Source: Roseibacillus sp. (GTDB taxonomy: Bacteria; Verrucomicrobiota; Verrucomicrobiia; Verrucomicrobiales; Akkermansiaceae). From it: 64,000 nt of DNA. The stretch's first letter is position 1; the number at the start of each line of letters is the position of its first letter. Below the pieces are notes generated by a model. It saw nothing but the letters and a program-made list of their open reading frames with translations. It searched no databases and was not told the DNA's origin. Shown piece by piece: positions 1 to 10,952 of this stretch. The stretch lies in NCBI GenBank assembly GCA_965242925.1, contig CBDEUM010000037.1:1-64000 (forward strand). The letters are read 5' to 3'. The translations under genes and the position numbers were made by a program.

Positions 1-1
1 C

Positions 2-844
2 ATTGAGGGCGAGAACCTGCAGACCGGCAGTGCGCAGTTCGTCGGCGCGGTCGCGGAGGTGGCCCAGTTCCTCAAGGCAGGGGGCGCACCAGGTGGCCCA
101 GAGGTTGACGAGGAGGCTCTGGTTGCCGAGCGTGGCCTGCCCCTGGCTGTTGCGGACATTGAGCTTGGGAGCGCGCAGGTGGGTGACGACCGGAATGCGG
201 GCCTTGACCGAGGAAGGGGAAGGCTCCTGCAATCCTGGGGTGAGGGCGGTTATCCGTTTTCCGGTGGCGACCGGTTGGGGGGTTCCCGTGCCCTGGAGGA
301 GAAGATAGTGCCGGTCGACCGCTACGCCTGGGAAGGATTCCACCGTGCCATCGGGCCAGCGCACCCTGATCCCGGCGATGTCCCTTTCCTCTCCGAGGCC
401 GAAATGGAGCCACTTGCTGGATTGGGCCAGAAAGCCCTCGCCCCCCCGCAGGGAACGGACCAGGTGGTGCAGACTCTTGGCCTTGGGAATCAATTCCACC
501 CGGGCACCGATGGCATCCCGATTGACGGAGGTCCCGTTTCCGCGGAGACGCAATGAAAGGAAGTGGTTCTTCCCGTTTCCCTCGTTGAGCAGGAGGCGCA
601 GGCGCGGGGCGTTGCGGTTGCTGATCCAGAGGTCGAGGTTTCCGTCCTGATCCCAGTCGCACACCGCGAGGGCCCGACCGTCGTCAGGGAAGTCGAGTCC
701 GCTCCCGGCGGAAAGGTTGGCGAAGCGTCCGTCACGGGTGTTGAGAAAGACGCAATTGCGCTCCTGCCCGCTGAAGGAGCGCCCGGAATCGATCATGGCG
801 GAAAGGGCGACGTGGGCACCGGTGGCTGCCGGATCGGATGGCAT
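2..844 (-). CDS. C-terminal part of the FG-GAP protein: last FG-GAP repeat, ASPIC/UnbV domain and TlpA-like thioredoxin-fold domain (runs off window edge)
   Basis: Not in the ORF track because it has no stop in the window. Manual minus-strand translation from ATG 844 gives ...GRSFSGQERNCVFLN...DWDQDGNLDLWISNR...RDAIGARVEL...GEGFLAQSSKWLHFGLG...VRWPDG (ASPIC/UnbV), then LLVNLWATWCAPCLEEL (WATWCAPC at 100-77). Confidence 0.85.
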   Translation of the reverse strand, partial: MPSDPAATGAHVALSAMIDSGRSFSGQERNCVFLNTRDGRFANLSAGSGLDFPDDGRALAVCDWDQDGNLDLWISNRNAPRLRLLLNEGNGKNHFLSLRLRGNGTSVNRDAIGARVELIPKAKSLHHLVRSLRGGEGFLAQSSKWLHFGLGEERDIAGIRVRWPDGTVESFPGVAVDRHYLLLQGTGTPQPVATGKRITALTPGLQEPSPSSVKARIPVVTHLRAPKLNVRNSQGQATLGNQSLLVNLWATWCAPCLEELGHLRDRADELRTAGLQVLALN

Positions 845-861
845 TTCGCTCGAATCGAGGG

Positions 862-893
862 TGGCGCGACACGACCTGTCGCCAGAAGAAACT
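862..893 (-). promoter_or_regulatory. Candidate bacterial SECIS hairpin downstream of in-frame UGA (896-894)
   Basis: Minus strand: UGA, 11 nt, then GCGACA-GGUCG-UGUCGC (882-866). This is a perfect 6-bp stem with a G-initiated loop 17 nt from the UGA, extendable by UG/CA. Confidence 0.6.
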
Positions 894-2789
894 TCATAAG
901 TCGCCGCTGTCTCTTTCGGAGGAGAGGTAACCGTTGGCCACCACGAAGTCGGGCCAGGCGTCGTTGTTAAGATCCACGAAGTTGGAACCCCAGGCCCAGC
1001 GCCCAACAGTGACCCCGGTCTGCACGCTCACGTCCTCAAAGCCCTCGCCGGTGTTGCGGAAGAGGGTGTTGCCGCGGGCGAATCGGCGGAAGCGGTTGCG
1101 AATGTTCTGATCGGTGCCGGTCTTGAACTGTCCCTGGGTGGTGATGCGGGAACCGGCGGCAGAAAACATGTTGGCCACGTAGATGTCCATGCGGCCGTCG
1201 CGGTCGTAGTCACCCCAGGCCGCCGACATGCCGCTCCCGACATCCTCCACCCCGGCGCTGGCTGCCACGTCGACAAATTTCCCATTGTCATTGCGGTAGA
1301 GATTGTTCCGGCCGTAGTCGTTGGCGACGTAGAGATCCTGGTCACCGTCTTCGTCGTAGTCCTCCCATGCCGCTGCGAAACTCCAGCGCAGGTTGTTTTG
1401 ATCGAGGCCGGTGGAAGCGGTGACATCATGGAAGGCCAGGTCACCGACGTTGCGGAAGAGGGAATTGGGCGCCCCGTTCCTGGCGTCGTGATAGACGAAG
1501 AGGTCATTCGCGGCCCCGATGGAGGCACCGCCGTCGTCCTGGACATAGCCGCAGACGAAGAGATCGAGGAGGCCGTCACGATCGTAGTCGGCGGCAGCGA
1601 GCGAGGTGGTGGAAGGATTACAAGGCAGGGCGGCGGCGACCGTGAATCGTTTCCGATCGTCGTTACGGGCAATGACCACCATCCCGTAGAGGGCCACCAC
1701 GAGATCCTGGTCGCCGTCGTTGTCGAGATCGAGGAAGAGGGCACTGCGGGAGTCATCGATCCAGTCGACACCCCAGGCGGCGGAGGTTTCTTCGGCGGTG
1801 CCGTCGGGTTTCTGCAGGAAGAGGCGATTGGGGAGCCCTGGCTCCTGGCAGAGATAGAGATCCTCCAGGCCATCGCCATTGATGTCTCCGAGTGCAAGTC
1901 CCGGTGTGCCAAAGCGGTTGAGCATGGCGCGCACGGGAAGGCGGCCCAGCCAGTGGTTCAAGCCAAGTCCAAGCTGGTTGCGGTAGCAGGGGGTGTCGCC
2001 GAGTGCAGATGCGGTTACGTCGGAGTAGAGAGGGGTGCTGCGCTTGCTCGTGGTGCGTGCGAAGTCCCGCACGGCCAGATGGGCCAGGGCGGGGAGGGAG
2101 TTCTGGTCGGGTCCGTGCTTCCAATCCGCGAGCCATGTGGCGTGATGCTCGACGAGGGTCTTGTCGGTGGAGAAGGAGAGGGAGAAGATCACCTCGGTCT
2201 TAAAGGTGTTGCCGGCGGATCCGGGGGAGACGCCCACGATCTTGAATTCCACATCCTGATGGTTTCGGCCGCCGCCCCGCGAAAGCTCCCGGATTTCTGC
2301 CAAGGCGCTTGCAAGGGCCTTTTTACTGGTCGGCGCAGGCGTGGGGGAGGTTTGTCGTTCGACCAGGACCAAGTCGTCTTCAAAGACTGGGCTCATTCCG
2401 GCGGGGACGAGGGGTTCGCAGGTGAAGCCCGGCGCGAGGAGAGCGGCCAGGTCGGCACCTCCTTCCTTGAAAAAGAGGTGGCCCAGTGCCTTGAGCTGCT
2501 TGCTTGCGTTTGCCGCCAGCACTTCCGTTTCCCAGCCGTCGGTTGAGGGGTCGTCCCGCGCCTGTGGAAAGGAGGACAGGACTTCCGGGAGGGGTTCCCC
2601 CGGGGCTTTGAGGGAGAGAGGAGACGGATCGGTTCCGAGGTCGGGCGTGGGTGTATTCCCGGTGTCCTTTTCCCTTTCGCCACACCCAGGAGCGAGGAGG
2701 GTGATTGCCACGGCGCCGGCCCACAGGAGTGCGCGCCATGCGCCGGGGAGGGTTCGGGGACGAAAACGGATTGGAGGAGGAGATCCCAT
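894..2789 (-). CDS. FG-GAP/VCBS-repeat (CRTAC1-like) lipoprotein, N-terminal part; probably continues through the UGA
   Basis: Lipobox LAPGC. Multiple DxDxDG repeats (GDINGDGLEDL, DLDNDGDQDL, DYDRDGLLDL, DYDEDGDQDL, DYDRDGRMDI, DLNNDAWPDF). Ends abruptly at SGDL-UGA. Confidence 0.85.
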   Translation of the reverse strand: MGSPPPIRFRPRTLPGAWRALLWAGAVAITLLAPGCGEREKDTGNTPTPDLGTDPSPLSLKAPGEPLPEVLSSFPQARDDPSTDGWETEVLAANASKQLKALGHLFFKEGGADLAALLAPGFTCEPLVPAGMSPVFEDDLVLVERQTSPTPAPTSKKALASALAEIRELSRGGGRNHQDVEFKIVGVSPGSAGNTFKTEVIFSLSFSTDKTLVEHHATWLADWKHGPDQNSLPALAHLAVRDFARTTSKRSTPLYSDVTASALGDTPCYRNQLGLGLNHWLGRLPVRAMLNRFGTPGLALGDINGDGLEDLYLCQEPGLPNRLFLQKPDGTAEETSAAWGVDWIDDSRSALFLDLDNDGDQDLVVALYGMVVIARNDDRKRFTVAAALPCNPSTTSLAAADYDRDGLLDLFVCGYVQDDGGASIGAANDLFVYHDARNGAPNSLFRNVGDLAFHDVTASTGLDQNNLRWSFAAAWEDYDEDGDQDLYVANDYGRNNLYRNDNGKFVDVAASAGVEDVGSGMSAAWGDYDRDGRMDIYVANMFSAAGSRITTQGQFKTGTDQNIRNRFRRFARGNTLFRNTGEGFEDVSVQTGVTVGRWAWGSNFVDLNNDAWPDFVVANGYLSSERDSGDL

Positions 2790-3049
2790 CGACCGGGGTC
2801 GCTCCTTCAGTCGCGGAGCATCCCCACTCTTCGCCGAAATGTGGCGGTAGGCAAGGCGTTAGCTTGTCCGGGGTACTTCCTCGTCCCGGCATTTTGCGGT
2901 TGGCCGGACAGGACTCCAAGGATTCCGGGAACAGGATTTTCTTCATCGGGTGACGGGCGGGATTGGTCCTGGAAAAAATCAGTGCGGGAGAAGCGGGAGT
3001 TTTCTATGATCGCTCTGCGGTGCCTCTCGCCGTGTTCCCGGATTCCCTG

Positions 3050-6000
3050 ATGACCACCCGCCAGCGCCCAGTGCCTTCAGGGGCAACCTTCGACGTCGCC
3101 TTCTGGGGTGTTTCGCTGTGCTTCCTTCTCTCGGGGATCGCGGGGCTGGTCTACCAGATGGTCTGGATGCGTTATCTTTCCACGATCTTCGGCACCTCAG
3201 AACTGGCCATCGTCACGGTGCTGGTGGCTTACATGGGGGGGTTGGCGGTGGGAGCGGCCCTGGCTTCCCGCCGGGTGCACCGGCTGGAGCGCCCTATCCG
3301 AACTTACGCGATCCTGGAATGCGTTATCGCGCTCTCCGCTGTGTTGGTGCCGTTGCTGCTCAAGGGCGTGGCGGCATTGCATGCCATGTTGCTGGGTGGC
3401 CAGTCGGCTCCGCCCCCGGATGGCGGCCCGGGAGAAGCGCTGGCCTTTCTTGGCCTTGGTTGTGTGGTCCTGCTCATTCCCACCGCCTGCATGGGAGCGA
3501 CCCTGCCCATCCTGGCGGCGGGAATCGTGCGCAGGGAGGAGCAGATTGGCAGACGGGTGGGCTGGCTCTACGCTCTCAACACCTTTGGGGCGGTGGCGGG
3601 AACCCTGCTGGCGGCCTTTCTTTTCATTCCGCGGCTGGGCCTGTGGCAGACGTCCTTCATCGGAGTCGCGCTCAACCTCACGGTGGCGGTTCTTGGCTGG
3701 TTCGTGGCCCTGCGGGTTCCGCGGGTGAGCGTCGGGGAGGCAGTTGAGGGTGAGGAGGCGGTGAGCGCCGGGGAAAAGGATGAGGAGAGTCTCACCGGGA
3801 TGCCTTCCGGGATCTCTGCAACTCTCATTCTGGTGGTCATGCTGTTCTCAGGTGCGGTTTCCTTTGTCTATGAGATCCTCTGGTCGCGGTTGCTGGCTCA
3901 CGTAGTGGGAGGAAGCCTCGTGGCCTTCGCCACCATGCTGGCGGCCTTCCTGGGGGGGATCGCCATCGGGGGGTTGCTGGGTGCCCGCTTCGCCGGGCAG
4001 CAGAGGCGTTCCTGTTACTGGCTGGCCGGGGTGGAGATCGCGGCCGGGCTGATCACCCTCCTGCTCTTTCTCTACCTCTCGTCGAGCGGCTTCGCAGACA
4101 AGCGCTGGGGCGAGGCGACGACAGGCTCGCTGGCAAATCTCTGCATCTGGTTGCTCCTCCCGGCCACCATCTGCATCGGGGCCACCTTTCCGCTGGCGGT
4201 GCGCGCACTCACCAGGGACCCGGGGCAAGCCGGACGGATGGCGGGACGCGTCTATTCATGGAATACGGTCGGAGCTATTTTCGGAGCAGTGGGCGCGGGC
4301 TACGTTCTCGTTCCAGAACTGGGGTTTGGATCGAGTTTCAAGTGGGCGATCGTGGTCAATCTCCTGCTGGGTGCCCTCATCCTGATCTTCATGAAGCCGC
4401 GTCCGTCCATTCCGGCAGCGGCGGCAGCGGTCCTGGTCCTGGTCACGGGGGTCTTTTATCATCCGGGGCCTCCTCTGGAGTTGCTCACGCTCACGCCGGG
4501 GGTTTCCCGGGCCGGAGGGGGGAAGACCCCGGTGCTCATTCATCACGCGGTGGGGCATTCCGCCAGCGTGGCCGTCCTGGAGCGACAGGGGAGTTTCCTG
4601 CTGAACACCAATGGTCTGCGCGAGGCTGAGGTTTTTGCGAGGGGCGCGGGCAAGCTTTCCTACACCAGTATCCGGTGGCTTCCGGCCCTGCCCGTGGTCC
4701 TGCGTCCTGAATCCAGATCCATGCTGGTGGTCGGTTTCGGCGGCGGAGCCCTCCTGGAAGCAGTGCCGCGTTCAATCGAGTCGATTGAGGTGGTGGAACT
4801 GGAGGCTGAAGTGATTCGAGCCAACCAGTTCATTGCCGACCGGAGGGCCATCGATCCTTTCCAGCGATGAGCGCATCAAGGTGATCGTGAATGATGTGCG
4901 GGGAGCCCTTCGCCTCACCGACAAGCGCTATGATGCGATCGTTTCCCAGCCCTCCCATCCCTGGACCGCGGGAGCTTCCCATCTTTACACCCGTGAGTTT
5001 CTTGATCTGGTGCGCGATCACCTTGAGGAGGAAGGGACCTTCGTGCAGTGGCTGGGGGCGCAGTTCGTGGATGAGAATCTGCTGCGCTCGTTCTGTGCCA
5101 CCATGCTGGCGGTCTTTCCCCACACCCAGCTCTATCTCATCAGCGATAACTTCGTTTTTGTGGGATCGCGAAAATCCCTGGAGGATCCCTTTCTTCCGGG
5201 TGCGACGCCGGAGGGAGGGCTTTTCCGGTTCAGCGATTATCCCAAGCTGGCCAACAGGGAGGATGTTCTCGCCAAGTTGCAGCTGGACGAGGCGGGGTGC
5301 CGCAGGCTGGCGGCAGGATATGCGGTGGTTACGGACGATCGCAACCTGATGGCGACCGGGCAGAAACTGGATGGGAGGCGGGAGGGGGCAATGAACGGGC
5401 CCAGGAGGCTCCGGGAGGTGCTGAGTCCGCTGCACTTCCTCAACCAGGAATCGGGCAAACTGCTGGAGGAGATGACAGGAGGGGCGATCGACCGGGACTA
5501 TCTCGACCGTCTCTTGCGGGGGAGTGCCCGGCACATCGATCTCACCCACTATCGAGCCAGGAAACTCTCAAGAGACGACCAGCGTCCCGCCCGGGTCCGG
5601 GCGTTGGACGTCAGTCGCCGCCTCGAGCTTGGCCGACGGGGCTGGAAGGCACGGGGCCGGGGAGCAGGTCCCCGGGAGTTGGCCGAGCTTCTGGCGGAGG
5701 ACGAGACGCTGGCAGGTGAGTTTGGGAAACTCAGTGAGCGGCAGCGGTCGCTACTGGAGGCGGAGCACTGGATGTTGACCGGGCAGTTGCAGCGAGCCCG
5801 GAAGCTTCCGCCCCAGGCCTACCTGCTGGAGGATCACCGTGATCCCCTGTATGTGACGGCAGCCGAGATACGACTGCGCTGCCTGATGGATGTGGCGGGG
5901 AAATCGGTAGCGGAACAGGAGAGCGATGCCCGCAAGGGGGCCGATCTTCTCGATCACCTGCTTTCGCTCACCCTGGTGAGTAATTTGACCCTGACGACCC

Positions 6001-6275
6001 AGCGGATCGAGTTGGCGCATCGCCTCGGGGACACCGATTACCTGCGTGCGATGGGCTGGATCCTGGCACGCCGCTTGGCCACTGCGCCTGCCAGGGCCCC
6101 GGAGCAGATGAAGGATCTCTACCGGGCTCCGCTGGGAGCTATCCTGAAGCCCTACGCCAGCCGTGATCCACAGGGACGGTTGCGCTTATCGAACAAGGCT
6201 ATCGACGAGTGGTACCGTGAGGCGCGGAGCCAGATGGGGGACAGGATCTTCCCGGTGGACTACCGCCGGAAGTAA
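3050..6275 (+). CDS. Fused MFS-like membrane domain / spermidine-synthase-like SAM-binding protein (frameshift at ~4861)
   Basis: Duplicated TM module (LSGIAGLVYQMVWMR; FSGAVSFVYEILWSR), then VVGFGGG...VVELEAEV and DAIVSQPSHPW...LYTREF. ORFs 2963-4870 and 4833-6275 join as IDPF-SDERIKVIVND if one C of 4861-4862 is removed. Confidence 0.85.
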
Positions 6276-6305: not shown

Positions 6306-7715
6306 CTACGCCAGGATTTCCTTTACGATCTTGCCATGCACGTCGGTGAGGCGGAAGTCACGCCCCTTGAAGCGGAAGGTCAGGGCTTCGTGGTCGATTC
6401 CCAGGAGATGAAGGATGGTGGCCTGGAGGTCGTGGACGTGAACGGGCTTTTCAGTCACGTTGTAGCTGAACTCATCGGTAGCCCCGTGAATCATTCCGGG
6501 ACTGATGCCGCCGCCGGCCATCCACATTGAGAAGCAGGCCGGATGGTGATCGCGTCCGAAGTTCTTGTTGCGGGTCTGGGCGTAGGTGGTGCGGCCGAAT
6601 TCTCCCCCCCAGATGACGAGGGTGTCTTCAAGCATACCGCGGTCCTTGAGGTCCTGGAGGAGGGCGGTGGTGGGGCGGTCGACCGCATTGATCTTGCCCT
6701 TGATGGCATTGGTGATGCCGTCGTGGTGATCCCAACCGCGATCGTAGAGCTGGATGAAGCGCACACCCGCCTCGGCAAGGCGACGGGCGAGAAGGCAGTT
6801 GGCTGCGAAGGATGCCTTTCCGGGTTGGGCGCCGTAGCTCTCAAGGACGCTCTTTGGTTCCCGGGAGATATCCATCAGCCCGGGGACCGAGCCCTGCATG
6901 CGGTAGGCCAGCTGGAAGGCGTCGATGCGGGCTTCGATCTCGGGGTCACCCGACTGTTGGAGCTTGAGTTGGTTGAGGGCGCTGATGCGGTCGATGGTCT
7001 TCCTGCGGTTTTCCTTCGACATGCCCTTCGGGTTGGAGAGGAAGAGGACGGGATCGCCGGAGGACTGGAACTTCACGCCCTGGTGCGTGCTGGGAAGAAA
7101 TCCGTTATGCCAGTAGCGGGAGGGGACGGGCTGGCCACCACCAGAGAGAAGAACGACGAAAGCGGGCAGGTTTTCGTTGGCACTCCCCAGGCCGTAGCTG
7201 AGCCAGGAGCCCATGCTGGGTCGGCCCGAGAGCGGACTCCCGGTCTGCAGGAAGGTGACCGCCGGGTCGTGGTTGATGGGATCGGTGGTGGTGCTCCGGA
7301 TCAGGCAGATGTCGTCCGCGATCTCCGGCATGTGCTTGAAGAGGGTGTTCATGTCCATGCCGGCCTGGCCGTGCCGGGCGAACTTGTGCTGGGAGGCCAT
7401 CACGTTGATGGCGCCCTGTCCGCTCGTCATGGTGGTGAGGCGCTGGTTTCCCCGCACCTCGGCAGGGAGTGGTTTGCCATCCCATTTGGCCAGGTCGGGC
7501 TTGGGATCAAAGGTTTCCAGCTGGGAAGGCCCACCCGACATGTGGAGATAGATGACGCGCTTGGCCCTGGGGGTGAAGTTGGGGAAGCCGGACAGTCCGG
7601 CAGCGGGAGCGGTGTTGCTGGAGGAGAAGAGCTGGGCGAGGGTGGCCGCACCGAGCCCACAGGAGGTACGGGCGAGGAAGGTGCGGCGGGTGTGTAAATC
7701 CTGATATTCGCTCAT
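6306..7715 (-). CDS. DUF1501 family protein (Tat-exported, alkaline-phosphatase/sulfatase-like)
   Basis: TRRTFL Tat motif; AKRVIYLHMSGGPSQLETFDPKP; GWDHH; GEFGRT; GRDHHP; RLTDVHG. Confidence 0.92.
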   Translation of the reverse strand: MSEYQDLHTRRTFLARTSCGLGAATLAQLFSSSNTAPAAGLSGFPNFTPRAKRVIYLHMSGGPSQLETFDPKPDLAKWDGKPLPAEVRGNQRLTTMTSGQGAINVMASQHKFARHGQAGMDMNTLFKHMPEIADDICLIRSTTTDPINHDPAVTFLQTGSPLSGRPSMGSWLSYGLGSANENLPAFVVLLSGGGQPVPSRYWHNGFLPSTHQGVKFQSSGDPVLFLSNPKGMSKENRRKTIDRISALNQLKLQQSGDPEIEARIDAFQLAYRMQGSVPGLMDISREPKSVLESYGAQPGKASFAANCLLARRLAEAGVRFIQLYDRGWDHHDGITNAIKGKINAVDRPTTALLQDLKDRGMLEDTLVIWGGEFGRTTYAQTRNKNFGRDHHPACFSMWMAGGGISPGMIHGATDEFSYNVTEKPVHVHDLQATILHLLGIDHEALTFRFKGRDFRLTDVHGKIVKEILA

Positions 7716-7718
7716 CGG

Positions 7719-10700
7719 TCACTCGCGGGTAATCGTTTCGTCGAGATTGAGGAGGATGTTGCCCACCGCGGTCCAGGCGGCCAGTTCGACGGGATCGGCA
7801 CCTTCCGCAGGGGTGGATTTTCCATTGCTGATGAGTTGCCCGGCGCGGTCGGGGTGGGCACGGAACTCCTCCCGTTGCTCAGTGAGGGTGGCAGACAGGA
7901 TCTTTAACTCGGTCTGCGGCGGGGGGCGGGAGGTGGCGAGGGTGAAGGCGAAGGTGAGGCGGTCCTGGTCGGTGCTTCCTCCCTCCGAGAGGATGCGTTG
8001 CCCGAACAGGCGGGCAGCTTCCACGAAGGAGGGGTCATTCAGGGTGACGAGGGCCTGCAGCGGGGTGTTGGTGCGGGGGCGGTTGACGGAACAGAATTCG
8101 CGGCTGGGAGCATCAAAGATCTGGAAGGTGGGGTAGAGCATGGTGCGGCGCCAGAAGGTGTAGAGCCCCCGGCGGTAGAGGGCCGCGCCGCTGCTCTCCT
8201 TCCATCCCTTGCCGATGCTGCTGAGGTAGTTCGCGGGCTGGTAGGGAAAGACGCTCGGTCCGCCGAGGGTGGGATTAAGGAGTCCGCTGATGGAGAGTGC
8301 GCCGTCGCGGACTTCCTCGGCCGAGAGACGGAAGCGGGGGGCGCGGGAGAGGAGTCGGTTGCCGGGGTCACGGGTCCGGTAGCGCTGTCGGTTGACTGAC
8401 GATTGCCGATAGGTGGCGGAAGTGAGCATGAGACGTTGGAGTCGCTTGACGTTCCAGCCATGCTCGATGAAGTCGGCAGCCAGCCAGTCCAGCAACTCCG
8501 GATGGCTCGGGCGTTCCCCCTGGGTGCCGAAGTCCCCGAGGGTTTTCACCAGTCCAGTGCCGAAGAGCTGTTTCCAGAGGCGGTTTACCATCACCCGGGC
8601 CACCAGGGGGTGGCGGGGGTCGGTGAGCCAGTAGGCCAGTCCGAGGCGGTTGCGGGGTTGGTTGGCGGGCAGGCGGGGGAAGATGGCCGGCACGTCCGGT
8701 TGGACCTCTTCGCCCGGTTGGCGGAAGTCGCCACGCATGAGGACGTGGGCCGGTTTGCGCTTCTCCATCTCGACCATCACCATGGTGGTGGGGAGGGACT
8801 TGTCGACCTGGTCGAGTTCTTTCCTCGTGTTCGCCACCTCGGACTCCAGCTTGCGGAAGAGGTCACGCGACCCGGCGTGCACATAGTTGATGAAGTGGGA
8901 GAAGAGCTTCTTCTGTTCGTCTTCCGTGCGTTCCTTCCCGGGTTTGGCGGCAAGAGCCATGATGTCGGCGGGAGCCGGGTTCCATTCCCCGTCGATCTTG
9001 TACTTGGTGCCAAGATGGAACCCCACTGCAGCCTGCTCGCTGGCATCAAGGGCGCGGTCGTAGACGAGGACTTCCGCGAAGTCGGCGGCCGTCTTCTCCG
9101 CGCCCGCGTTATTGGCTCCGATGGTGATGGCCTTGTTCTGGAAACCGGAAAGGCTCACTCCTCCGCCCCCTCCGTCCTTGCCATTAAGACGGAAACGGGT
9201 GTCGTTGTTCTGGCCCTGCTGCGTGATGATGGCGATCACGGGGACGATCCGCTTGAGGTCCGCACTACCCACCATGTCCGCGCCGTAGCCATTGAAGCTG
9301 AACTTGTTCTTGTCCGTTTTCCAGAAGGCGCGCCGTTTGCCCTGGGACTCGTCACCCCACATGAGGGCCATCTGGTTCCGGGCGAGATCATTGAATTGCA
9401 GGACGAGCACCATGGTGAAGTCAGCGCCGAGCTGACCGGCCCCGGATGCGGTGCGAAGGAAGTCGTTCTTGCCATCGAGCCGGATGGCCGGGTGGCCGTT
9501 GAGGGCCCGGCCGAACTGCTTGGGTTGGCCGGTGGCGATCGCTGTCCGGTTGTTTCCGGAAAGGTCCGGCCATTCTTTCACGAATCCGCCGGGTGCGTCG
9601 AAGGAACCCGCGTCAAGATGCAGTTGCAGGCCGTTGTTGACCGGCAGAACCCCGGTCTGGGGCAAGGCGAGGGAAGTGACCCACTCCCTGAGGGCCGGGG
9701 CGAGGTTGCCCCCGGGATCGGTGAACTCCGGACGTTCGCGGGCGGCCTTCAGTTCCGCGGTTCTGGTGTCCAGGCGGGCTTGAAGGTCGGTCCGCTTCTG
9801 CTGATGGGTTCCGGTGCGAACCTTGAGGAGCGGGGGAAGGGGTTTGTTGTGGTAGCCGCTTCGGCCTCCGGCCCCGATCTCGCCGTCCACGCTGTTGAAG
9901 AAGGCGTAGAGTTGGTAGAACTCCTTCTGCGAAATGGGATCATACTTGTGGTCGTGGCACTGGGCGCAGCCCACCGTGAGGCCGAGAAAAACCTGACCGG
10001 TGGTGTTGGCGCGGTCCACCGCGTAGGTGACGTAGAATTCATCGGGATCGGCCCCTCCCTCCTCGTTGAAGGTCACGCAACGGTTGAACCCGGAAGCCAC
10101 CCGGGTGGTGTCGTCGGCATCCGGGAGAAGGTCCCCGGCCATGTTCTCCACGATAAAGCGGTCAAAGGGTTTGTTCCGGTTGAAGGACTCGATGACGTAG
10201 TCCCGGTAGAGCCACATGTCGCGCACGGAGTCGTTGTGATAGCCGTTGGTGTCGCCGTAGCGGGCGAGGTCGAGCCAGTCCTGGGCCATGCGTTCGCCGT
10301 AGTGCGGGGAATCGATCATGGTCTCGATGAGGCGGGCGAACTGTTCTTCGCCGTTGCCCGTCGAATGCCCGGCCAGTTCCTTGAGTGAAGGAGGAAGTCC
10401 ACGCAGGTCGAGGGAGATGCGCCGCACCAGATTCCGGCGAGTGGCCTCGGGGGAGGGTTCCATCTGTTGTGCTTCCAGGCGGGCGAGGATGAAGTTGTCG
10501 ATCGGATTGCGGGGCCAATCCCCATCCTTGACCGGTGGCATCGCGGGTTTCTCGACCGGGAGGAAGGCCCAGTGTTGTTCGTAGTGCGCCCCTGCCTTGA
10601 TCCATCCAGCGAGTTTCTCCCTGGCACCATCACTGAGGCGTTTGCGAAAGTCCGGCGGCGGCATCATCTCGTCGGGATCCTTGGAGAAGATCCGGCGAAC

Positions 10701-10952
10701 CAGTTCGCTCTCCTCAAGGTCGCCGGGCACGATGGCGCGGGCACCCGACTCCAATTCACCGGTTGCCACCTCCCGCAGGTCAAAGCGCAATCCGCTCTTG
10801 CGGGTCTTGGCGTCCGGTCCGTGGCAGGCGTAGCAGTGATTGGCCAGGAGGGGCTGAATTTCCCTGCTGAAATCTGATGCGCCCGCATCCGTGGAAAGCA
10901 GCAGGCAGGCCCATGCAAGAGGGAGGAGGCATCCTGTCCGGAAGGGAAGCAT
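7719..10952 (-). CDS. Planctomycete cytochrome c / DUF1549 / DUF1553 (PSD1) protein with inserted LamG-like domain
   Basis: CYACHG and CAQCHDHKYDP heme-type motifs; WLDLARYGDTNG; PSHPELLDWLA; TNTPLQAL; central LQLHLDA...WPDLSGN...EVLVYDRAL domain. Confidence 0.9.
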   Translation of the reverse strand: MLPFRTGCLLPLAWACLLLSTDAGASDFSREIQPLLANHCYACHGPDAKTRKSGLRFDLREVATGELESGARAIVPGDLEESELVRRIFSKDPDEMMPPPDFRKRLSDGAREKLAGWIKAGAHYEQHWAFLPVEKPAMPPVKDGDWPRNPIDNFILARLEAQQMEPSPEATRRNLVRRISLDLRGLPPSLKELAGHSTGNGEEQFARLIETMIDSPHYGERMAQDWLDLARYGDTNGYHNDSVRDMWLYRDYVIESFNRNKPFDRFIVENMAGDLLPDADDTTRVASGFNRCVTFNEEGGADPDEFYVTYAVDRANTTGQVFLGLTVGCAQCHDHKYDPISQKEFYQLYAFFNSVDGEIGAGGRSGYHNKPLPPLLKVRTGTHQQKRTDLQARLDTRTAELKAARERPEFTDPGGNLAPALREWVTSLALPQTGVLPVNNGLQLHLDAGSFDAPGGFVKEWPDLSGNNRTAIATGQPKQFGRALNGHPAIRLDGKNDFLRTASGAGQLGADFTMVLVLQFNDLARNQMALMWGDESQGKRRAFWKTDKNKFSFNGYGADMVGSADLKRIVPVIAIITQQGQNNDTRFRLNGKDGGGGGVSLSGFQNKAITIGANNAGAEKTAADFAEVLVYDRALDASEQAAVGFHLGTKYKIDGEWNPAPADIMALAAKPGKERTEDEQKKLFSHFINYVHAGSRDLFRKLESEVANTRKELDQVDKSLPTTMVMVEMEKRKPAHVLMRGDFRQPGEEVQPDVPAIFPRLPANQPRNRLGLAYWLTDPRHPLVARVMVNRLWKQLFGTGLVKTLGDFGTQGERPSHPELLDWLAADFIEHGWNVKRLQRLMLTSATYRQSSVNRQRYRTRDPGNRLLSRAPRFRLSAEEVRDGALSISGLLNPTLGGPSVFPYQPANYLSSIGKGWKESSGAALYRRGLYTFWRRTMLYPTFQIFDAPSREFCSVNRPRTNTPLQALVTLNDPSFVEAARLFGQRILSEGGSTDQDRLTFAFTLATSRPPPQTELKILSATLTEQREEFRAHPDRAGQLISNGKSTPAEGADPVELAAWTAVGNILLNLDETITRE

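Follow-up and report, generated by a model that had tools for sequence, protein, structure and literature searches.

An in-frame UGA predicted to encode selenocysteine in a CRTAC1-like lipoprotein gene with a fused redoxin domain from Roseibacillus sp.

The window analysed here is a stretch of 64,000 nucleotides from Roseibacillus sp. (contig CBDEUM010000037.1 of assembly GCA_965242925.1), and the gene under study occupies the minus strand at its beginning. An open reading frame of 631 aa runs from 2789 to 894; its last residues are SGDL, a TGA codon follows at 896-894, and the same frame past this codon reads SFFWRQVVSR. The frame of 1006..2 contains an FG-GAP repeat, a UnbV_ASPIC domain (514-305) and the motif WATWCAPC (100-77). 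All of these elements had been pointed out in an earlier reading of the letters alone (hereafter, the sequence-only reading) and were borne out. The product is probably an exported lipoprotein, as the start codon ATG (2789-2787) opens a signal peptide (2789-2682) ending at a lipobox-like LLAPGC, with Cys36 at 2684-2682, and the N-termini of the paralogues are likewise hydrophobic and end in a cysteine. Next comes an N-terminal domain of residues ~37-300 (2681-1890), over which no Pfam or NCBIfam family was found, and then the FG-GAP repeats of a CRTAC1-like beta-propeller (1889-897), which extend to Leu631 directly before the TGA. FG-GAP_3 was detected in 5 stretches (3.1e-37) and FG-GAP with a value of 4.8e-18; with PF13517, PF01839 and PF07593 above the Pfam cut-off, the order is that of CRTAC1-like proteins, FG-GAP repeats and then UnbV_ASPIC. 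The TGA, predicted to encode selenocysteine (Sec) as residue 632, is separated by an 11-nt spacer (893-883; codons Ser-Phe-Phe and part of Trp) from a predicted SECIS hairpin (882-866). One extra C, at either 863 or 864, then shifts the frame, and the rest of the gene (862-2) encodes in the shifted frame a helical insert, the last FG-GAP blade (DWDQDGNLD, 658-632), the UnbV_ASPIC domain and the start of a TlpA-like redoxin to which WATWCAPC belongs; the cysteine of an ERNC motif lies at 754-752.

The gene leaves the contig end at position 2, and the remaining redoxin and TPR parts are found on an overlapping contig of the same genome, C28. The copy on C28 is intact, and its uninterrupted reading gives a 1283-aa protein in the order lipoprotein signal, N-domain, CRTAC1-like FG-GAP propeller, ASPIC/UnbV, TlpA-like CxxC redoxin and TPR. 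The sequence-only reading had proposed one chain of more than 920 aa; the single long chain stood, and the length was too low, the intact copy having 1283 residues with a C-terminal TPR region. In the intact copy, the C-terminal domain scored above the Pfam cut-off for both AhpC-TSA (38.4 bits) and Redoxin (27.8 bits). The gene neighbourhood consists of a spermidine-synthase-like membrane protein, a DUF1501/PSCyt pair, an esterase and a DEAD helicase, and it gives no functional hint.

In the window as assembled, the fold continues only with a change of frame 30 nt past the TGA, and the extra base sits 2-3 nt after the hairpin. The sequence-only reading had taken this +1 slip at about 864 for a biological event, in which case a programmed ribosomal slip would join the two frames of a gene with Sec at its UGA. 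However, more than 100 homologous copies were compared and no frame shift is needed in any of them, and the base is absent from contig C28, which is 99.46% identical to the first 5.4 kb of the window where the two overlap. Four public runs, each from a different study, have 5 contigs that cover the place (1, 1, 2 and 1 contigs, the last from an RNA library); none of these contains the base, and they otherwise match the window allele. Neither a slip site conserved in homologues nor its presence in independent samples was found, and a programmed slip is extremely unlikely. Another scenario is that the extra base is real in one strain, in which case a genuine selenoprotein gene would have become a frameshifted pseudogene in this allele. 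Strain variants do exist, as there are 27 differences in 5.4 kb between the end of the window contig and C28. However, the base does not occur in the contigs with the window allele, which come from three DNA runs and one RNA run. The site also lies within 900 bases of the contig end and adjoins a 45-nt stretch common to many contigs; depth rises sharply at 801-900 and loose ends occur at 866, 902 and 911, and it is in such places that assemblers err. We give the pseudogene scenario a small but real chance. Judging from these contig comparisons, the apparent frameshift is a single extra base private to this assembly and not a recoding event, and the true reading would be U-SFFWRQVVSR-TLDSSEM... 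A flaw of this type illustrates that a short nucleotide-conserved element can break metagenome assemblies. Two contigs of the RNA run (X15) fell on 730-881 and 957-1107; they were not counted as proof of transcription because DNA can occur in such libraries.

The contigs from public runs keep the TGA at 894-896, where no difference from the window was listed, and the codon is not unique to this assembly. In the own genome, all 13 close paralogous places carry exactly one TGA each, at D-L-[TGA]-S-F-F/Y-W-R-Q-V, and more than 100 distinct copies have it at the same aligned position. Among the matches listed in a scan of a genome collection, 77 of 80 loci had TGA, one had TGC (L065) and one was unresolved; locus L058 had the TGA as well, by a looser pattern. 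TGA was present in 21 of 37 matches in a sample of Acidobacteriota. A metagenome scan, seeded with non-TGA proteins and with its search patterns placed away from the TGA site, gave TGA in 48 of 71 motif-bearing loci (80 examined, among the matches listed). When pooled, the distinct TGA-bearing sequences numbered 112 and came from Verrucomicrobiota, Planctomycetota and Acidobacteriota. Relatives with or without TGA were encoded by 558 of the 586 matched stretches listed in one scan and by 595 of the 607 listed in the second. No other TGA-type copy was found at E <= 1e-20 in 401 genomes of the window's phylum, a sample dominated by one small-genome genus and with 7 candidates scored per genome; of the 7 genomes with a match, the other 6 scored weakly and showed no stop. 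This sample says little because the later collection scan found many Verrucomicrobiales MAGs. The conservation of the TGA is far beyond chance.

The hairpin, which the sequence-only reading had described as 17 nt long and starting 11 nt past the UGA, was recovered at 882-866. It has a 5' arm GCGACA (882-877), a loop GGTCG (876-872) and a 3' arm TGTCGC (871-866), forming 6 bp with a 5-nt loop, with an MFE of -7.9 kcal/mol for the hairpin by itself and of -9.5 when 25 nt are folded. The bSECIS model specifies a loop of 3-9 nt, a stem of 4-16 bp, a G within the first two positions of the loop, a distance of 16-37 nt between UGA and loop and an MFE <= -7.5 (PMC13188914); the window hairpin, with its 5-nt loop GGUCG, 6-bp stem, loop start 17 nt after the UGA and MFE of -9.5, fits this model. 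Over 81 distinct sequences, 95.5% of the cells of the 6-bp stem were paired, a value reached in 0 of 500 shuffles, and 2 pairs showed changes on both sides. One of the stem pairs occurred as AU 35, GU 27, GC 9, CG 5 and UG 1 times, and this variable pair joins the synonymous third base of an Arg codon with the first base of a Ser/Pro/Ala codon. The hairpin was not equally present in non-TGA homologs: all six pairs were formed in 92/112 TGA copies vs 2/34 non-TGA copies, and among copies with the same peptide WRQVV[SA] in 73/82 vs 2/27. An MFE <= -7.5 was reached by 102/112 TGA copies and 10/34 non-TGA copies. In a 66-nt context, folding was no better than in shuffles (z = 0.40), which is uninformative for a hairpin of 17 nt in G+C-rich coding sequence, and positions 780-960 had no match in Rfam even under permissive filters.

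These data also bear on the hypothesis that the TGA is a true stop, which would leave two genes or a dead gene and make the hairpin a by-product of the WRQVVS codons. Gene callers do annotate two genes in such cases (footnote 1, Table S9, PMC4807772), and some pairing is built into the codons, as two of the six stem pairs were also formed in >90% of the non-TGA copies, part of the pairing being imposed by the R-Q-V-V codons. However, in every copy both frame and fold run on through the TGA, the arrangement is conserved over three phyla, synonymous sites are constrained in TGA copies only, and the compensatory pair ties a synonymous site to a residue change. A true stop is hardly credible.

In the own genome, a tRNA-Sec with anticodon TCA, selB and selD were found, and selD itself carries an in-frame TGA. 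The selA gene was not found by two models in this assembly, which is 89.87% complete, and it was present in 5/5 nearest relatives. Among the other TGA-bearing genomes, which alone were counted, selB scored above the cut-off in 43/49, the remaining 6 MAGs being without it. In Acidobacteriota, selB was present in 16/16 TGA-bearing genomes and absent from 4/14 genomes with only non-TGA copies. Of the four outcomes that the sequence-only reading had named as contrary to its proposal, one was that TGA genomes lack SelAB/tRNA-Sec; selB was present in most of the genomes counted, and none of the four checks refuted Sec. The UGA could nevertheless be read as something other than Sec, either by near-cognate readthrough (Trp, Cys, Arg) or because UGA is reassigned. 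The failure to find selA in this assembly and the many residues that non-TGA relatives tolerate at the site would agree with this. However, there is one TGA per gene, always at the same position; 8 of the 13 paralogues terminate in TGA, and therefore UGA is a stop in this organism; and the covariation of the hairpin, its fit to a SelB-type SECIS model and the distribution of selB in Acidobacteriota all argue against it. We consider a non-Sec reading very unlikely.

The sequence comparisons make it almost certain that the UGA at 896-894 encodes selenocysteine. It would be decoded by the ordinary bacterial route of tRNA-Sec and SelB, with the SECIS hairpin 11 nt downstream, inside the coding sequence, directing Sec insertion. 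The proposal of a single long exported lipoprotein with Sec and a SECIS within the reading frame is supported by TGA conservation, hairpin covariation and selB. Thus 2789..2 on the minus strand very probably represents the first ~930 codons of a ~1283-aa exported selenolipoprotein with SECIS-directed Sec, the slip being an assembly base. The arrangement resembles that of E. coli fdhF-type genes, in which an in-frame UGA has a small stem-loop directly downstream in the coding sequence, and tRNA-Sec, selB and selD are likewise present in the window's genome. As in fdhF-type bSECIS elements, the loop opens with G-G/U 17 nt after the UGA (consensus 16-37 nt), and we presume that it is comparable to the loop of the E. 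coli fdhF minihelix. However, the window protein is unrelated to formate dehydrogenase and has no molybdopterin domain, and its Sec-less homologs carry E/S/D/A/N and not Cys, unlike those of fdhF-type selenoproteins.

An AlphaFold2 model of residues 288-1017 of the intact copy (pLDDT 93.4, pTM 0.93) displayed a fold unbroken across the Sec, which stands at the start of helix 345-355, while the CxxC stands at the start of helix 615-626. The sequence-only reading had placed the Sec in a propeller loop; the propeller was retained, and the model replaces the loop with an inserted alpha-helix of which Sec would be the first residue. The top PDB match was murine CRTAC1 (9etn_A, E 1.1e-27; TM 0.71 on target, 595 columns, 18% identity), and TlpA/ResA were also matched. 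In the 9etn crystal structure, as in the window family, an FG-GAP propeller is followed by ASPIC/UnbV; the window protein differs in adding the lipoprotein signal, N-domain, CxxC redoxin and TPR repeats. Both the model and Pfam indicate that the C-terminal domain has a thioredoxin fold with the CxxC at the N-terminus of helix 1. It shares its fold with the TlpA/ResA/StoA oxidoreductases (TM 0.65-0.79 on targets) as well as W-x-x-W-C-x-x-C at a helix start. However, the redoxin of the window family is fused to a propeller, whereas theirs is free-standing, and its proposed partner is the Sec of its own chain. It scored far below the cut-offs of the NCBIfam ResA, TlpA, DsbE and StoA models and should thus be regarded as a domain of that fold and not as a ResA/TlpA ortholog. 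To our knowledge, CRTAC1 is not a selenoprotein.

Cysteine is the usual counterpart of Sec. In the non-TGA relatives, the Sec site mostly holds E, S, D, A or N, and Cys is rare (4/96 and 4/110, plus the TGC of L065). The CxxC was intact in 80/81 TGA copies vs 10/70 and 9/110 non-TGA relatives. A WxxWCxxC regex made this contrast too sharp, as an HMM found a thioredoxin fold with a decayed motif in many non-TGA relatives. The ERNC cysteine was present in 22/25 TGA copies vs 13/97 non-TGA relatives. In 8 phylogenetically independent pairs, Sec/Cys and CxxC varied in the same way in ~4, in the other way in 0 and without difference in ~4 (sign test, p about 0.125, not significant), and the same test gave no signal for the ERNC cysteine. 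On this evidence, the association between Sec and CxxC is largely a clade effect. In addition, the Sec site is occupied by S, R, G, Y, H or D in the closest non-TGA relatives with a kept CxxC. The protein can thus do without Sec or Cys, and this makes it less likely that catalysis depends on them.

The retention of the CxxC in 80/81 TGA copies suggests a Sec-CxxC redox relay, and the earlier proposal that the protein's own thioredoxin domain serves as redox partner is plausible. In such a mechanism, Sec would act as a redox-active selenol and, with the ERNC cysteine and/or the fused CxxC domain, might form an extracytoplasmic selenol/thiol relay working as a reductase or peroxidase on some substrate. 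The relay could be recharged through a CcdA/DsbD-type membrane protein, and a DsbD_TM protein is present in the own genome. We tentatively raise the possibility, which we hold to be less probable than its opposite, that Sec did not take the place of Cys in an ancient active site but belongs to a redox centre found only in one CRTAC1-like clade. With about the same reserve, this centre might comprise the N-cap Sec of the inserted helix, the ERNC cysteine and an active TlpA-type CxxC, the sister clades having E/D/S/N at the site and a decayed CxxC. If so, the family would represent a new class of extracytoplasmic seleno-oxidoreductase, one whose expansion in marine Verrucomicrobiota and Planctomycetota has led to 11-13 genes in each genome. 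These bacteria would then be far richer in selenoproteins than catalogues show, and what the CRTAC1/ASPIC fold does would for the first time become accessible to biochemistry. With 11-13 copies in one genome, the family would dominate the selenoproteome of that organism. It also offers a testable way into the biochemistry of CRTAC1/ASPIC-UnbV propellers and a range of naturally occurring variants, which have Sec, Cys or a non-redox residue at the site and a CxxC that is either intact or decayed.

The sequence-only reading knew of no such characterised selenoprotein family, but a partial record of the family probably exists. Table S9 of PMC4807772 (2016) contains four candidates that match the domain description, each annotated as two adjacent genes; their closest hit has Gly, not Cys, at the aligned residue, and bSECISearch found a SECIS in 3/4 (PMC4807772). 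These are four supplementary rows only, and the main text of that paper has 0 occurrences of 'UnbV' and 'FG-GAP'. The redoxin/TPR architecture, covariation, distribution and paralogue expansion are not given for the Table S9 candidates, and we infer from the description that they belong to the same family. Literature searches linking selenoproteins to FG-GAP, ASPIC or UnbV gave only unrelated papers or none, and those combining selenoprotein with cartilage acidic protein gave, among the matches listed, papers unrelated by title or abstract. A term search of PMC13188914 and PMC2398784 gave 0 occurrences of FG-GAP, ASPIC, Planctomyc- and Verrucomicrobi-. NCBIfam has no model for the window family, and a 2026 catalogue of 119 selenoprotein families does not include it, widespread as it is. 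Standard selenoprotein searches rely on Sec/Cys pairs, and the rarity of Cys at the Sec site in the window family may therefore explain this absence.

Database entries for the family consist of two truncated proteins, which distorts domain statistics, pangenomes and estimates of selenium use in marine PVC bacteria and Acidobacteriota. That gene callers split the gene, as the sequence-only reading had expected, is stated in Table S9 of PMC4807772 for its four candidates. The splitting is also evident in that the best full-length match among 5.8 billion proteins reached 56% identity, yet relatives at the DNA level were found at 86-95%.

The gene under study lies on the minus strand of the window, where an open reading frame of 631 aa runs from an ATG at 2789 to a TGA at 896-894. 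Its N-terminus is a signal peptide closing with LLAPGC (Cys36), and five of its stretches match FG-GAP_3 (Pfam, 3.1e-37). Past the TGA, the same frame reads SFFWRQVVSR and is degenerate thereafter. The frame of 1006..2 contains TLDSSEM, another FG-GAP repeat and an UnbV_ASPIC domain (9.6e-19); an AhpC/TSA-Redoxin domain bearing WATWCAPC begins after these, and the frame leaves the contig at base 1. The sequence-only reading had joined these parts into one selenoprotein with a hairpin after the UGA and a +1 slip at about 864. Rechecking the window confirmed its description of the reading frame, the TGA, the continuing frame, the hairpin and the downstream domains.

The proposed slip did not survive comparison with other copies. 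The first 5,389 bases of the window are the reverse complement of positions 1-5,387 of C28, another contig of the same genome, at 99.46% identity (27 mismatches and 2 gaps), and both C28 and the window's own contig, C37, terminate at the edge of the overlap. The two contig ends probably represent one locus twice, as two strain variants. Within the gene, the window differs from C28 by 20 substitutions and one extra base at 863/864, and C28 reads through uninterrupted to a TAA, giving a protein of 1283 aa. This intact copy contains six FG-GAP_3 stretches, UnbV_ASPIC at 759-828, AhpC-TSA/Redoxin at 886-1001 and TPR repeats at about 1040-1260. NCBIfam held no model for the family; TPR and ResA/TlpA-type models alone scored, all far under their cut-offs. 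In addition, we aligned Logan contigs from four public runs of four studies (three DNA libraries and one RNA library) to window positions 1-3000. The sole indel listed was the omission of one base at 863, and the extra base was absent from every covering contig (1/1, 1/1, 2/2 and 1/1). No variant letter was listed at 894-896, which was covered in the three DNA runs; because contigs drop rare variants, a minority allele may exist. A programmed +1 slip was therefore rejected, as the extra base is found neither in C28 nor in any covering contig of the four runs. The bin 801-900 showed a 4- to 30-fold jump in summed contig depth in the three DNA runs, and loose contig ends clustered at 866, 902 and 911. 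A stretch of about 45 nt spanning the Sec codon and hairpin is common, at the nucleotide level, to many contigs of paralogues or other organisms, and this shared stretch is the likely cause of both the assembly flaw and the nearby contig break.

To examine the TGA, we searched the own genome in six frames with the read-through segment as query. Thirteen places contained exactly one TGA inside the match, in all cases at D-L-[TGA]-S-F-F/Y-W-R-Q-V or a close variant. Two pairs among them are nearly identical over the gene end (C37/C28, 99.5%; C12/C17, 98.6%) and may each be one locus assembled twice, so the count is at least 11 genes. Complete paralogues are 816-1365 aa long and contain just one TGA. 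The terminal stop is TGA in 8 of the 13 places, so this organism uses UGA as a normal stop codon. The C12/C17 pair, a Sec-type paralogue at C17:48955-53243 and C12:50229-54517, is 98.6% identical over this stretch and only 82-90% identical in the flanks; it is either a recent segmental duplication or the mark of a second strain or species in the bin.

The same codon recurred far beyond this genome. Scanning a single genome for each of 185,579 species with two search patterns gave at least 586 matching stretches, 558 of which encode relatives. Among the best 80 loci, the site was TGA in 77 and TGC in one, and a further locus (L058) showed TGA by a looser pattern; as one of the two patterns spelled Cys at the site, the search was biased against TGA, not for it. 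These loci come from MAGs labelled Roseibacillus, Akkermansiaceae, Verrucomicrobiales, Planctomycetota, Pirellulaceae, Phycisphaerae, Kiritimatiellia, Polarisedimenticolia and Terriglobia, with one labelled Flavobacteriaceae. Among 251 sampled Acidobacteriota genomes, matches at E <= 1e-40 occurred in 30; 21 of the 37 matches carried one TGA and 16 none. Two unpublished genomes contribute one row each to the Acidobacteriota and hairpin tallies (G602, non-TGA; G499, TGA), and no conclusion rests on either. From a metagenome scan seeded with 28 non-TGA proteins, with both patterns placed far from the site, 80 loci were examined. The motif was present in 71 of them, with TGA at the site in 48 and another codon in 23 (N 13, S 7, A 2, M 1). 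The TGA at 896-894 is conserved and no accident, and it is not unique to this assembly.

The hairpin begins 11 nt past the TGA, with arms at 882-877 and 871-866 around the loop GGUCG (876-872). Folded by itself it has a minimum free energy (MFE) of -7.9 kcal/mol, and within 25 nt of sequence -9.5. When 81 distinct TGA copies were aligned without gaps, the six stem pairs were formed in 95.5% of 486 cells, a level matched by none of 500 column shuffles; sliding the 3' arm by 1-3 columns lowered pairing to 11-66%. Two stem pairs showed changes on both sides. In one exchange, A-U replaces C-G in copies that encode Arg as AGG and have CCU (Pro) as the next codon. The fourth pair, at 879/869 (AU 35, GU 27, GC 9, CG 5, UG 1, other 4) couples the synonymous third base of the Arg codon with the first base of a Ser, Pro or Ala codon, a coupling that selection at the protein level would not predict.

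The alternative, that the hairpin is a by-product of the codons for the conserved peptide, has some basis, since the R-Q-V-V codons supply two of the six pairs, which were formed in >90% of non-TGA copies too. However, over the distinct sequences of all sets, all six pairs were formed in 92/112 TGA and 2/34 non-TGA copies, the loop was GGUCG in 88/112 and 9/34, and an MFE <= -7.5 kcal/mol was reached in 102/112 and 10/34; among copies with the same peptide WRQVV[S/A], all six pairs were formed in 73/82 and 2/27, these ratios overstating the statistical weight because related sequences are not independent. The hairpin also agrees with the bacterial SECIS model of PMC13188914 (section 5 and Fig. 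2 legend) in each of its four constraints. Against a SECIS, Rfam contained no family matching the element, and a 66-nt fold around the site was no better than shuffles. Covariation, specificity to TGA copies and fit to the model indicate that the hairpin is a SECIS and more than a codon by-product.

A second hairpin type was found in four Acidobacteriota loci (L151-L154, in G690, G526, G640 and G630) in the context D-T-[TGA]-S-F-F-W-R-H-V-V. It has a stem of 8-9 bp, a 3-nt loop, an MFE of -11.8 to -15.3 and a C-G/U-A exchange of its own, tied to an Ala/Thr change. In the own genome, a divergent paralogue (L124, C13:146575-147120) reads PDG-[TGA]-SCLWQVVVSQP and has a hairpin of different sequence that begins 14 nt past the TGA, not 11.

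The machinery for selenocysteine was then considered. Of the selA, selB, selC and selD genes that the earlier reading had proposed to look for, the own genome possesses tRNA-Sec with anticodon TCA (Rfam model, 59 bits; ARAGORN), selB (287.5 bits, above cut-off) and selD (366.6 bits, C14:573853-574776), the last with an in-frame TGA of its own, so that selD, too, encodes a selenoprotein. Neither TIGR00474 nor PF03841 detected selA in this assembly, which is 89.87% complete; the gene is present in all 5 of the nearest relatives with TGA copies. Among the 50 genomes reached through the loci, 44 had selB above cut-off, namely 43 of the 49 TGA-bearing genomes and the TGC genome; among the six TGA-bearing genomes lacking it are assemblies of 1.6-2.2 Mb. 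For the Acidobacteriota, selB was present in 16/16 TGA-bearing genomes and in 10/14 with non-TGA copies only. Taken with the conserved TGA and the covarying SECIS, this machinery makes it highly probable that the UGA at 896-894 is read as Sec, through a SelB-type SECIS and within a single long reading frame.

The residues at this site in other relatives were diverse. A search of 1.84 billion representatives returned 51,974 proteins at E <= 0.001; among the best 150, 96 cover the site in one stretch, with E 29, S 19, D 18, A 9, N 7, C 4, Q 3, M 3 and four others. A search of 5.8 billion proteins added 110 new full-length proteins, with A 27, N 26, S 26, D 9, E 6, G 6, C 4 and others. The Sec site of this family stands on an unusual non-Cys background. 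The names given by the sources ("tetratricopeptide repeat protein", "FG-GAP-like repeat-containing protein", "peroxiredoxin", "hypothetical protein") nowhere mention selenium. The best protein match was 56% identical, whereas DNA relatives reached 86-95%, indicating that close relatives are not recorded as whole proteins.

The columns that separate TGA copies from the others are Sec, the conserved Cys after it (the ERNC Cys; 22/25 TGA copies versus 13/97 others), W613, C614 and C617. All 81 TGA copies tested have the thioredoxin-fold domain, as do 70 of the 150 representatives, and both Cys of the CxxC motif are intact in 80/81 TGA copies versus 10/70 and 9/110 non-TGA relatives. In a FastTree phylogeny of 122 rows, with four of the distinguishing columns masked, 24 of 25 Sec rows fell within one clade of 37 (local support 98) that also holds 12 S/E/A/D rows and one Cys. 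The Sec label changed at least 5 times on well-supported branches, so Sec was lost or gained more than once. An independent-pairs test of CxxC against Sec/Cys (8 contrasts) gave about 4 with, 0 against and about 4 equal (p about 0.125), and the ERNC Cys showed no signal in this test. Among non-TGA relatives with an intact CxxC, the nearest show C, S, R, G, Y, H or D in place of Sec, several of these being one base change from TGA; evidently, the protein can persist without Sec.

A redox-active Cys or Sec at the N-terminus of a helix is an arrangement of thioredoxin-fold proteins and glutathione peroxidases. We built an AlphaFold2 model of residues 288-1017 of the intact copy from 81 sequences, with Sec read as Cys (mean pLDDT 93.4, pTM 0.93). 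In the model, Sec (construct residue 345) begins helix 345-355; this helix and a second one after it are inserted ahead of the last blades, and the CxxC (614, 617) opens helix 615-626. In full-length numbering, Sec is residue 632, the ERNC Cys 679 and the two CxxC cysteines 901 and 904. The best PDB match was murine CRTAC1 (9etn_A; E 1.1e-27, TM 0.71 on target, 18% identity), and the redoxin domain matched ResA, TlpA, StoA and relatives. The protein would be exported and lipid-anchored, with the selenol at the helix N-cap as its reactive residue. The ERNC Cys, the fused CxxC domain or both may resolve the selenol, a relay for which we judge the chances about even; the CxxC domain would in turn be reduced by a CcdA/DsbD-type protein, and one DsbD_TM protein is present in the own genome.

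A 2026 review compiled 119 prokaryotic selenoprotein families (PMC13188914); its Table 1 lists no FG-GAP, ASPIC/UnbV or CRTAC1-like family, and these terms are absent from its text. A term search of the GOS survey (PMC2398784) likewise gave none of them. Four candidates from 2016 whose domain description matches the gene are found in Table S9 of PMC4807772, each entered as a pair of IMG genes. The closest hit has Gly at the aligned position, and bSECISearch gave a hit for 3 of the 4; the main text of that paper does not mention them. The family is hence barely documented rather than unknown, and its decoding mechanism is standard. The finding itself is real: a widespread family of very probable selenoproteins, present in many copies and predicted to be exported, whose members stand in databases as two pieces and are missing from catalogues.

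Two observations concern the neighbourhood. On the plus strand, the divergent neighbour (2963-6275) consists of a 635-aa multi-pass membrane ORF without a Pfam match and a 480-aa Spermine_synth ORF, which overlap at 4833-4870 and may be a single fused gene that a further frame flaw has interrupted. On the minus strand (6306-10952), a DUF1501 gene adjoins a PSCyt1/PSCyt2/PSD1 gene, a pairing common in Planctomycetota and Verrucomicrobiota.
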